In this document: piece by piece, positions 12,878 to 63,025 of the stretch
How the letters are laid out: the number at the start of each line of letters is the position of its first letter
Numbering within the stretch: position 1 is the first letter of the stretch
Origin: Octopus vulgaris
Taxonomy: Eukaryota
Assembly (NCBI GenBank): GCA_951406725.2
Contig: OX597827.1
Location: 8,122,001 to 8,186,000 of the forward strand
Direction of reading: 5' to 3'
Length of the DNA stretch: 64,000 nt
Notes under the pieces: generated by a model
What the model was told of the DNA's origin: nothing
The model's database searches: none
What the model saw: only the letters and a program-made list of their open reading frames with translations
Made by a program: the position numbers and the translations under genes

Positions 12878-13479
12878 GTATATGAATATGTGTATATATA
12901 TATTTATATATACACACATGTGTGCATATGTGTGTGGATGTGCATACCTGCATATCTTAGAATGTTTAAATATAAATGTGAAAGAAATATAACTAAATCT
13001 TGTTTGTTAATTAACTGATGTTCTGTAAAGAAGGATAAAAACAGTTTACAAAGCCCAAATTTTAATTTGACATGAAATGAAATAATAAAAGGTAACAAAA
13101 TTTAGAAACGGAATAAATAATGTTGTTATTCAGTCAATAAAAAGAAATCATCTTATAAAGGGATCAATTTTCTCTTATATTGTTAAAGCAAAATATTTGC
13201 ATGTTTTTGCAGATATTCATTATGCCTATTGTGATTGGCTTTATTAACAAATTGTCACAAACAATGTCACAATATCTAGTCATGCTATACCAGGCTTCAG
13301 TATTCAGTCATTAGAGTGCATTTCATATTTAGTGAAGATGATAAATTTGCTGAACCCATAGACTTATACTCGGTGTTCAAATCCTAACATTGCCTTTTAC
13401 ATACTTGGTGTATTATTGATTAAGAATTAGTATTATTTGGCTAATTATTTGACTAAAAGGCAGTGAGCGGACAGAATAC

Positions 13480-13975
13480 TCTCCATCAGGCATTTGCCAT
13501 ATTCTGAATGCCTTACTTCCCTGGGCATGGACACATTGAAACTCCGACATCTGGCAGCTGACTTGGCAGACACACATAAAATTATCAACCATCGTACAAA
13601 CAATAACTCTGAGCACCTTTTCAAACTCCACCTGTCTAACACTCATGGACATGATTACAAAGTCAGAAAACGGCATGGCTCCCATGACTTTCGGAAACAT
13701 TTTTTCACGCTAAGAGTTGCTGAAGCATGGAACAAACTGCCGGCATCAGTTGTTAGTTGTCGGAGCACTGCATCCTTCAAAACTTCCATGCTTCCTGAGA
13801 GATTCGCCAACACTACACCTGATTTTCTCCCCTCCATACACACGCAAGCATGTATCTGACTCATACACTGTTCGCTTCCCAGACATTTGTACATTACTGC
13901 ATATACTTTATACACACTTTTTGACAAATTATGGAGCACCTGAGTACTGTATACAATAATTTCATTATTATTATT
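13480..13975 (+). mobile_element. CR1-group LINE 3' fragment
   Basis: ORF 13494-13859 YSECLTSLGMDTLKLR...GHDYKVRK...RKHFFTLRVAEAWNKLP is a typical CR1 ORF2 C-terminus; ends in (ATT)n. Confidence 0.85.
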
Positions 13976-23013: not shown

Positions 23014-23531
23014 TTAACAGTGACTCCTGTGCAGGTGGCAAGTGAAGAAACACCATTTCGACCCTGTGCTTGAGGAGATCCATTGAGTCAAGTAAACCAA
23101 CATCAAAATCAATGGAAACTGCAGTTGTGATCCGTGTGCCAGTGGCATGTAAAAAGCACCATCTGAACGTGGCCGATGCCAGCGCCGCCTAGACTGGCTT
23201 CCGTGCCGGTGGCTCGTAAAAAGCACTATCCAAATCGTGGCCGATGCCAGTGCCGCCTTGACTGGCTTCCGTGCCGGTGGCATGTAAAATGCACCAATCT
23301 GATCGTGGCCGATGCCAGCCTTGTCTGGCACCTGTGCAGGTGGCACGTAAAAAGCACCCACTACACTCACGGAGTGGTTGGCGTTAGGAAGGGCATCCAG
23401 CTGTAGAAACACTGCCAGATCAGACTGGAGCCCGGTGCAGCCTTCTGGCTTCCCAGATCCCTGGTCGAACCGTCCAACCCATGCTAGCATGGAGAATGGA
23501 CGTTAAACGATGATGCTGATGATGATGATGA
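23014..23531 (+). mobile_element. RTE LINE 3' UTR with internal tandem units of about 65 bp
   Basis: Repeated GGCA(T/C)GTAAAA(A)GCACC...CGTGGCCGATGCCAG units and a (GAT)n tail. Confidence 0.82.
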
Positions 23532-25674: not shown

Positions 25675-25975
25675 ACATCCGTTCGTGGCCGTTGCCAGCC
25701 TCGCCTGGCCCCCGTGCTGGTGGCACGTAAAAAGCACCATCCGTTCATGGCCGTTTGCCAGCCTCGTCTGGCACCTGTGCCGGTGGAGCGTAAAAAGCAC
25801 CCACTACACTTACGGAGTGGTTGGCGTTAGGAAGGGCATCCATCCGTAGAAACATTGCCAGATCAGACTGGAGCCTGGTGCAGCCTTCTGGCTTCCCAGA
25901 CCCCAGTTGAACCATCCAACCCATGCCAGCATGGAAAGCGGATGCTAAACGATGATGATGATGAGGATGATGATT
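25675..25975 (+). mobile_element. RTE LINE 3' UTR fragment
   Basis: Same motif set and (GAT)n tail as 23014-23531. Confidence 0.8.
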
Positions 25976-32240: not shown

Positions 32241-32836
32241 GGCGAGCTGGCAGAATTGTTAGCACACCGGGCGAAATGCTTAGCGGTATTTCGTCTGCCA
32301 TTACGTTCTGAGTTCAAATTCTGCTGAGGTCGACTTTGCCTTTCATCCTTTCGGGGTCGATTAAATAAGTATCAGTTATGCACTGGGGTTGATATGATCC
32401 ACTAAATCCGTTTGTCTATCCTTGTTTGTCCCCTCTGTGTATAGCCCCTTGTGGGTAGTAAAGAAATAGGTATTTCATCTGTCTTTATGTTCTGAGTTCA
32501 AATTCTGCTGAGGTCGACTTTACCTTTCATCCTTTCGGGGTCGATTAAATAAGTACCACTTACGCACTGGGGTTGATATGATCCACTAAATCCGTTTGTC
32601 TGTCCTTGTTTGTCCCCTCTATGTTTAGCCCCTTGTGGGTAGTAAAGAAATAGGTATTTCATCTGTCTTTATGTTCTGAGTTCAAATTCTGCTGAGGTCG
32701 ACTTTACCTTTCATCCTTTCGGGGTCGATTAAATAAGTACCACTTACGCACTGGGGTTGATATGATCCCCTAAATCCGTTTGTCTATCCTTGTTTGTCCC
32801 CTCTGTGTATAGCCCCTTGTGGGCAGCAAAGAAATA
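32241..32836 (+). mobile_element. SINE family B with tandemly triplicated body
   Basis: One head followed by three units of about 180 bp, joined at AAAGAAATAGGTATTTC. Confidence 0.88.
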
Positions 32837-41517: not shown

Positions 41518-41879
41518 CATACATACAGAGTGATAGACTGACAGACTGACTGGCAGACAGACAGGCAGACAGACAGAGAGATAGTCAGATAAATATCCCT
41601 TTCTCTCACTGTTGTAATCTCTGCGACTTATTCACTGCTTCTCTGCCAAGAGTAGCATCTTATTTTTGACTTGGATTCCCTATAAAATTAGTTGAAACAA
41701 ACCCTTGAGAAAGTAGAGAAGTTTGTATACATAAGTAAAATGCTTGAAAGCAATACTCCAGCATTGCCATATTCTACTAATTAAAACCAGAAAATCACAC
41801 ACACATCAAAGAAAACACACACACACATACACATGTATATGTATATGTATGTGTATGCCCGAGTGTGTGTATATATATG

Positions 41880-53725: not shown

Positions 53726-54133
53726 ATATGTGTATGTATATATCATCATCATCATCATCATGCTGGCATAGGTTTGATGGTTTTACTGGCTTGGCATGCT
53801 GGAAAGCTGCTCCGGTCTGGTTTGGCATGGTTTTCTACGGCTGGATACCCTTCCTAACGCCAATCACTCTGACAGTGTAATGGGTGCTTTTACATGCCAC
53901 TGGGATGGGATGAAAGGCAAAGTCAACTGCTAAGCATTTCGACTGGCGCACTAATAATTCTGCCAGCTTGCCGCCCTATATATATATAAAAGTACATATA
54001 TAGTGACTTGATATAAAGTGACTTGATCTGAGATCGTGTGCTGGAATGAAAACAATTGCAGCGTGGAAGGTGTTTATAAGTCATTTAAGAAACACACAAA
54101 AACCGTTAGATTCACTTCAACATTTAAATTTAA

Positions 54134-54184
54134 TTTGTCAAAATATTTTCGTCACTTTGAGACTGCGACCTGTTCACTGACAAA
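54134..54184 (-). ncRNA. Type I hammerhead-like motif, G3-C8 core variant, in a Penelope-like fragment (about 54020-54215)
   Basis: UUUGUCA-GUGAACA-G-GUCGC agucucaaa GUGAC-GAAA-AUAU-UU-UGACAAA. Stem I is a perfect 7 bp, stem II is 5 bp and stem III is the palindrome AAUAUU. Confidence 0.62.
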
Positions 54185-54212
54185 GCTTCGTGCTGCATCT
54201 CTTCGTGTTGTC

Positions 54213-54243
<31 letters not shown>

Positions 54244-54248
54244 CGTGT

Positions 54249-54330
<82 letters not shown>

Positions 54331-54535
54331 GTATATATTATAGTTATAGGAAGTTAATTATATGACCGGTCACAGAGCGACCAATGGTTTCACACTCATA
54401 AAGCAAATAACCTTATAGACAGCCGGTAAAACTCCAATGGCTGTGGGCATATAACGTCTTAAATACATTACTGCTCTAACATTTAGGTTGTACTTCTTTC
54501 CAAGATACACGTATACATATTATGTATATATTTGT

Positions 54536-62240: not shown

Positions 62241-62571
62241 ATGTATGTATGCATGTATGTATGTATGTATGTATGTATGTATGTATGTATGTATGCATGT
62301 ATGTATGTATGTATGTATGTATGTATGTATGTATGTATGTATGTAGTGTGTGTGTATATGCATGCATACAAAGGTCTTCTTTCAGTTTCTATCAACAAAA
62401 TCCACTCACAAGTTATTAGACAGCCGAAGGCTATGGTAGAAGACACTTGCCCAAGGTGTGACACATTGAGACAGAATCTAGAGCCATGTGGTTAGGAAGC
62501 AAACTTCTCTTTATAAACTTTCATCTCTTCCAAGATGGCAATGTGCATTGTTACTCTCTTTAGTGATATAT

Positions 62572-63025
62572 CCCGATATGTCTGGAAGATTCTGGAAGGA
62601 ATTGTGCCAAATTTTGGCATTGTAAGCTACACCAATGCTAGAACGGGACGACACTGCATAGTGCCAAAGATCCCAGCAATGCCATCACGCTTCAGGACCA
62701 GCTTCTGCAACAGCCTGGGTTTCAAGAGCCCACAGCTTTTTAATATTCTCCCAGAGAGTCTGAGGAACTTGCACAAGGTAGATGTAGCAGTTTTTAAATC
62801 AAAGCTGGATATCTTCCTGTCAAGAGTCCCAGATGAACCTACCTCACGGCAAGAGGTGCAAATGAGAGTAGCTATATCAAACTCCATTCTTCACCAAGTG
62901 CCACATATTAGATGAGGTTCGTCGCAATAACAGAGTAGCACAAAACGGCGATGCATCAGCATGGCCGCAGCTCTGAGCTGAAACTAGAAAAAGAAAAGAA
63001 AAAAGAAGAAAGAAAGAAAAAAAAT
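62572..63025 (+). mobile_element. CR1-group LINE 3' end
   Basis: YVWKILEGIVPNFG...RTGRHC...SLGFKSPQLFNILPESLRN...FKSKLDIFLSRVPDEP, followed by a short 3' UTR and A-rich tail. Confidence 0.85.

Follow-up and report, generated by a model that had tools for sequence, protein, structure and literature searches.

The 64,000-nucleotide stretch of Octopus vulgaris DNA analysed here (the window) contains a candidate type I minimal hammerhead whose core carries G3-C8 in place of the canonical C3-G8 pair. We consider it probable that this motif lies inside a truncated high-copy repeat of the Penelope-like element (PLE) type, that the swap was fixed in a master element, that dimers of the motif would be cut slowly, and that the solo copy in the window would be inert. 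The motif and its surroundings were delimited as follows:

53977 to 54027, no strand: other junction of the fragment, with short (TA)n and, at 53996-54027, a tandem duplication of 15 bases (sequence, repeat listing)
54016 to 54200, minus strand: truncated fragment of a very high-copy repeat, likely a PLE terminal repeat (pLTR) (depth, loose ends, run search)
54134 to 54184, minus strand: type I minimal hammerhead motif with G3-C8 core (sequence, pattern scan, fold)
54134 to 54140, minus strand: 3' strand of stem I, UGACAAA (sequence, family variant table)
54141 to 54150, minus strand: G12 A13 A14 (54150-54148), palindrome AAUAUU (54147-54142) and U17 (54141) (sequence, pattern scan)
54151 to 54169, minus strand: stem II of 5 bp (G10.1-C11.1) with a 9-base loop II (fold, family variant table)
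54170, minus strand: extra unpaired G between A9 and G10.1 (pattern scan), an added base that is a hallmark of PLE minimal hammerheads, in which it is mostly one of A, C and U (Fig. S3 and text of PMC4209133)
54171 to 54177, minus strand: core G3 U4 G5 A6 A7 C8 A9, with G3 at 54177, C8 at 54172 and A9 at 54171 (sequence, pattern scan)
54178 to 54184, minus strand: 5' strand of stem I, UUUGUCA (sequence, pattern scan)
54198 to 54200, minus strand: predicted 3' splice site, AG plus first exon base, 14 bases upstream of stem I (suggested by loose ends behind 54200 in three of three DNA-type runs)
54213 to 54342, no strand: (TA)n tract flanking the fragment (repeat listing)

On the minus strand, stem I joins UUUGUCA (54184-54178) to UGACAAA (54140-54134) by seven of seven Watson-Crick pairs. 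Stem II (GUCGC/GUGAC, 54169-54165 with 54155-54151) has four Watson-Crick pairs and one G-U pair in the 54134-54184 copy. The cleavage-site triplet is UUU, with U17 at 54141, and standard hammerhead numbering predicts a cut between 54141 and 54140. Nine of the 11 canonical invariant letters are present; at the other two, C3/G8 has become G3/C8 with the Watson-Crick pair kept. The motif thus departs from the canonical core letters at positions 3 and 8, and it has the stems I and II and the G10.1-C11.1 pair of a canonical hammerhead. The extra nucleotide of PLE minimal hammerheads (consensus H) is present at 54170, though as a G, and their palindromic helix III has its counterpart in AAUAUU (54147-54142), from which a helix III of 6 bp can form in a dimer only. 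The initial annotation had read the core as GUGAACA replacing CUGANGA and the rest of the motif as well formed, and on the minus strand we confirmed the core as well as the 7/7 stem I, the 5-bp stem II, GAAA, AAUAUU and the UUU site. Its parts and coordinates were right, but it had overlooked the unpaired extra G at 54170.

The motif was compared with chance expectation by using a strict pattern composed after the motif had been seen (it required GAAA, the palindrome, UH, a stem I of at least 7 and a stem II of at least 5, accepted every Watson-Crick combination at 3-8 and tolerated at most one extra base). This pattern matched once in the 64-kb window versus never in 4,440 block-shuffled 64-kb windows, and a relaxed pattern matched three times. 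The folding energy of the motif was unremarkable (z = -1.65; 15 of 200 shuffles equally good). No Rfam family reached its gathering score in the window, and hammerhead families were absent from the 25 Rfam matches around the motif at E up to 10. The motif was unique within the 64-kb window when this was searched against itself by BLAST. A 17-base partial match at 41621-41637 was dropped as a possible second copy, as it was without hammerhead context. Non-LTR retrozymes are built of units repeated in tandem, with a type I hammerhead in every unit (bioRxiv 10.64898/2026.07.22.740005). The 54134-54184 hammerhead stands solo in the window.

The window is AT-rich and dense in microsatellites and repeat fragments. 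Two overlapping frames at 36-892 had Pfam matches to an integrase zinc-binding domain (PF17921) and an rve core (PF00665), together making up a broken LTR-retrotransposon integrase. Tandem arrays were present at 23136-23358, 25676-25801 and 32285-32836, with related units of 63-68 bases and a 184-base unit in three copies. The frames at 13467-13856 and 62517-62912, which we take to resemble the C-terminal ends of LINE reverse transcriptases, had no Pfam match.

The repeat fragment that contains the motif is 185 bases long and lies between (TA)n tracts. The segment 54010-54212 was found in 21 of 24 listed sequencing runs, 18 of which, under six organism labels, shared 0.65-0.88 of its 17 words. 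The two insect-metagenome RNA runs X19 and X20 shared only 0.18 and 0.12 of the words, for which contamination or chance is possible, and they are no evidence. In all four runs with aligned contigs, which bear three organism labels, 20,191, 7,264, 5,878 and 1,359 contigs aligned over 54016-54200. Summed contig depth, which is not a copy number, peaked at ~4.4 million in run X2 versus ~40-60 for single long pieces. Because the depth in X2 stays large after division by the 31-fold overlap of short contigs, the repeat should have thousands of copies. The family extends past both ends of 54016-54200, and the copy in the window is therefore a 185-base fragment. Two metagenome loci (L001, L002) and three viral loci (L003-L005) had only 21-25 bases in common with the queried sequence and were dropped as chance. 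Further scans of sequence collections gave no match, and another gave 58 candidates, none of which was confirmed.

Judged from its letters, the motif resembles the minimal hammerheads of PLEs in the structural features tested; this class has been known since 2014, and the motif departs from it in its G3-C8 core. Both are of type I with an extra base between positions 9 and 10.1 and G10.1-C11.1, and both have a palindromic minimal helix III with a 2-base loop of the Drosophila type (Cervera and De la Pena 2014, PMC4209133). Many solo truncated copies, an intron end near helix I (a prediction for the octopus repeat), a common U17, and U-rich and AU-rich flanks are likewise features of PLE minimal hammerheads, whereas stem I has 7 bp in the octopus motif and usually 3-5 in that class (PMC4209133). 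At position 3, 53 of the 56 rows of Fig. S3 of that paper have C, 3 have U and none has G; at position 8, 54 rows have G, 2 have A and none has C. Two rows lack the extra base, one has G there, and the other 53 have A, C or U. It should be noted that the zero for G3-C8 arises partly by construction, since the core letters were fixed in that search (PMC4209133) and it could not have found this combination.

The repeat is likely the terminal repeat (pLTR) of a PLE. We infer this origin, because no RT or endonuclease frame was linked to the repeat family: no RT or GIY-YIG coding region was found near the fragment in the window or via protein searches with the translated frames. Of four protein matches, P0001 and P0002 were repetitive unrelated proteins and were dropped; P0003 and P0004 are translated copies of the repeat. 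Pfam gave no family for the two frames over the repeat, for P0003 or for P0004. Among the 15 listed of 63 joints, 11 connect opposite strands, and 10 of these 11 have one end at 54184-54202. Furthermore, P0003 translates a head-to-head pair of repeats. The opposite-strand joints fit head-to-head inverted, 5'-truncated copies, with an inverted copy beside the pLTR as in PLEs, for which a head-to-head inverted layout has been reported (PMC8557442). PLEs make up 6.83% of the Octopus vulgaris genome (PMC13282606). In regard to Naiad PLEs, four short motifs had no match in one supplement of PMC8557442.

In each of the three DNA-type runs, the loose ends behind 54200 carry, on the hammerhead strand, a branch-point-like CUAAC, a pyrimidine tract and CAG, with CUAAC and the tract occurring in other copies only. 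The 3' splice site at 54198-54200 is predicted from these acceptor-like letters in the loose ends; no donor or spliced read was seen. In Penelope of D. virilis, the intron ends at helix I (PMC4209133). The exon that would begin at the predicted acceptor starts with ATG and has a 22-codon frame through the hammerhead, and it is near this acceptor that the consensus drawn from the loose ends of many copies fades. Another ATG frame on the minus strand runs from 54084 down, starting 50 bases downstream of the hammerhead and running off the truncated end. This frame could be the start of the element's ORF, and its 28 codons had no Pfam match.

Variation within the family gives modest support for conservation of the hammerhead structure. 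The majority letter at 54154, with 87-94% of depth in four of four runs, makes stem II fully Watson-Crick. Compared with the family majority, the 54134-54184 copy has undergone two CpG transitions, one at 54154, where G-C became G-U, and one at 54164 in the loop. All listed CpGs decay, mostly at 3-11% (3-4% at G12, 4-7% at C11.1), and we therefore conclude that inserted copies decay neutrally and that any selection acts on the masters. Non-CpG variants that reach at least 2% in a DNA-type run affect 15 of the 83 positions downstream of the motif, 3 of the 8 in loop II and a single one of the 7 in the 3' strand of stem I; none falls on the nine positions from U17 to A13 (54141-54149) or on the two in stem II. 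Unstructured and structured positions compared as 18/91 versus 1/18 (Fisher p = 0.13). Structure-breaking subfamily variants occurred at none of the 18 testable paired or core positions (Fisher p = 0.028), in a test with few positions and summed contig depth. The sole structured variant, at 54138 (10-42% of depth), turns U-A into U-G with pairing kept. As is characteristic of PLE minimal hammerheads, the motif belongs to a multi-copy family with structure-compatible variation.

The subfamily variants at 54076, 54108, 54128 and 54159 reach 17-39% in runs X2 and X9 and stay below 2% in X11, indicating that the master lineages differ between organism labels; the hammerhead positions that could be tested do not change. 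The initial annotation had ascribed the swap to selection on ribozyme structure rather than decay. This proposal stands in part: the 3-8 swap is no arbitrary double change and the family keeps the fold, but selection would act on an active master and not on a solo truncated copy with two CpG transitions. In run X8, guessed to be RNA, T>C changes as read on the plus strand, equivalent to A>G in the hammerhead sense, reach 6.2% at 54086, 7.3% at 54106 and 3.5% at 54125; three DNA-type runs do not exceed 0.6%, 0.2% and 0.5% at these positions. The pattern in X8 looks like A-to-I editing of hammerhead-sense transcripts.

The functional meaning of the 3-8 pair is known from mutants. G8 is held by pairing with C3 and its 2'-OH is essential; the G8C change lowers the rate ~100,000-fold, and C3G partly restores it (PMC8495972). 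Partial rescue by G3-C8 was also reported for the PAc PLE hammerhead of Anolis (PMC11167929), and when every single and double mutant was scanned, rescue among the double mutants of the CUGA region was confined to the change from C-G to G-C at 3-8 (PMC9901934). A remark in PMC3884650, with data not shown there, holds that G3-C8 works better without C17. These engineered C3G/G8C ribozymes (PMC11167929, PMC8495972, PMC9901934, PMC3884650) have core letters identical to those of the octopus motif; they are laboratory mutants of canonical ribozymes, whereas the octopus motif is genomic and likely amplified thousands of times. In the literature searched, with most subscription papers outside the search, the G3-C8 core was found in engineered mutants only. 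Natural covariation to U3-A8 was reported by Perreault et al. 2011 (PMC3088659), and Cercyon PLEs of Schistosoma carry U3-A8 in ~1,300 copies (PMC4209133). The U3-A8 hammerheads likewise have a compensatory 3-8 change, which takes two transitions and keeps the pyrimidine-purine order; in contrast, G3-C8 takes two transversions and reverses it. Only ~3 of the 495 possible double changes among the 11 invariant core positions are Watson-Crick 3-8 swaps, so drift is an unlikely source of the swap.

In cofold predictions (MFE), a crossed dimer lay below two monomers by 2.6 kcal/mol for the 54134-54184 copy and by 3.0 kcal/mol with the family stem II. The MFE state has no helix III and pairs G3 with U17, and the full hammerhead dimer lies ~5 kcal/mol above it. 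The predicted probability that G3 pairs with base 17 and extends stem I is 0.67 if that base is U, 0.98 if it is C and 0.00 if it is A. According to these folds, and in agreement with the remark on C17 in PMC3884650, U17 may be favoured over C17, as C17 would lock G3 into stem I. A special coupling between U17 and G3 is unproven, because U17 also occurs in 24 of the 56 canonical rows (PMC4209133). The same rows do not bear out the initial annotation in singling out the UUU triplet as suboptimal: with U17 in 24/56 and UUU in 1/56 published PLE-type hammerheads, the latter in a mollusc row, the triplet is not exceptional in the class.

We propose that the G3-C8 swap was likely fixed in an active master element. 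Two tandem copies on one transcript would cross-pair their stem I strands, the AAUAUU palindromes of both copies would build the 6-bp helix III, and a slow cut would follow after U17, as in PLE minimal hammerheads. The solo copy at 54134-54184, with no partner within 64 kb, is likely inert. Under this model the cleavage activity of the motif is likely low; canonical PLE minimal hammerheads also cut poorly in vitro (PMC4209133).

Four indirect readings (codons of other copies, a junction contig, alignment ends and word shares) together make it very probable that G3/C8 is family-wide. Differences in the read table are listed only for 54044-54167. Since differences must also occur outside this range (CpG 54035-36; 54185-88), an edge filter of ~30 bases is indicated; 54177 (position 3) falls outside the range that the table covers and 54172 (position 8) on the border of that range. 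The lack of table rows at 54172 and 54177 was for this reason rejected as proof of a family-wide G3/C8. Instead, the open plus-strand frame allows codons to report bases 3 and 8. P0004 reads Cys-Ser-Leu, so that base 8 must be C and base 3 cannot be. In P0003, the forward arm reads Tyr-Ser-Leu, giving U8 and a base other than C at position 3; the inverted arm shows Ser at the place where C3 would yield Thr, with position 8 ambiguous. One junction contig has G3 with G8, plus two more changes within five bases. C3 is therefore absent from all four of these copies, and C8 is present in one of the three that can be resolved (C in P0004, U in the forward arm of P0003, G in the junction contig). It should be noted that the four were picked up as divergent copies, that the junction contig was listed for failing to align, and that U8 is one transition from C8.

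Alternatively, the family core could be canonical or mixed, with G3 and C8 as private or minor-subfamily changes of the 54134-54184 copy. The edge filter hides position 3, and nearly so position 8, from the read table, the junction contig and one protein-derived arm carry G8 and U8, respectively, and the copy has other private changes at 54047, 54081, 54154, 54164 and 54185-88. However, the four private changes listed in the table are all transitions, three of them at CpG, whereas G3 and C8 require two transversions; moreover, C3 was seen in none of the other copies and C8 was found in an independent one (P0004). Alignments often reach exactly 54184, where 119, 86, 62 and 13 contigs have loose ends in the four runs. 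Such ends fit the 20-base exact run present under G3/C8 better than the runs of 7, 4 and 7 under C3/G8, a comparison that depends on the rules of the aligner. Sharing of 15 of 17 words in five runs has P = 0.74 if the flanks alone are private, versus 0.12 if G3/C8 is private too. A private origin of the swap is thus quite improbable. Still less probable, to a degree that we regard as very slight, is a fortuitous resemblance to a hammerhead within a repeat of other than PLE type, for instance a SINE or the inverted-repeat end of a DNA transposon. The absence of an Rfam hammerhead match, the ordinary folding z-score and the absent link to a PLE protein are compatible with a look-alike, yet no shuffled window among the 4,440 matched the strict pattern, and four PLE-specific details (the extra base, the palindrome, the upstream acceptor and the head-to-head junctions) would be superfluous for a generic one.

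A family-wide G3-C8 core could also be catalytically dead, with cleavage lost in the ancestor of a non-autonomous family and the fold persisting as a relic or a protein-binding signal. This would accord with three departures of the motif, namely the swapped core, the G as extra base (1/56) and the predicted G3-U17 trap (0.67), and with the behaviour of other elements, as an Anolis PLE inserts in vitro without the need for hammerhead cleavage (PMC11167929) and Naiad PLEs thrive without canonical hammerheads (PMC8557442). Against it, a dead core is not expected to hit upon a compensatory swap (~3/495 double changes) or to avoid structure-breaking subfamily variants (0/18), and we consider such a loss unlikely. 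The fixed swap in a PLE master with slowly cut dimers is accordingly retained as the probable reading.

Whether this amounts to a catalytically active natural G3-C8 hammerhead lineage, fixed in a PLE master and present in thousands of copies across several species, is a more tentative matter; we regard it as possible, somewhat short of an even chance. The 3-8 pair carries the nucleotide whose 2'-OH serves catalysis, and the laboratory swaps indicate that the base can be changed if the pair is kept, but in the literature examined nature shows only C-G and U-A at this place. If the lineage is real, the G3-C8 family would complete the natural covariation and would show a ribozyme crossing a two-transversion valley. 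It would also argue for selection on cleavage or on the active fold in PLEs, where cleavage is dispensable in vitro (PMC11167929). Because standard patterns and Rfam miss the G3-C8 motif, hammerheads in animal genomes may have been undercounted. Such a lineage would be invisible to CUGANGA searches, and some PLE families reported as hammerhead-free may carry variants of this kind.
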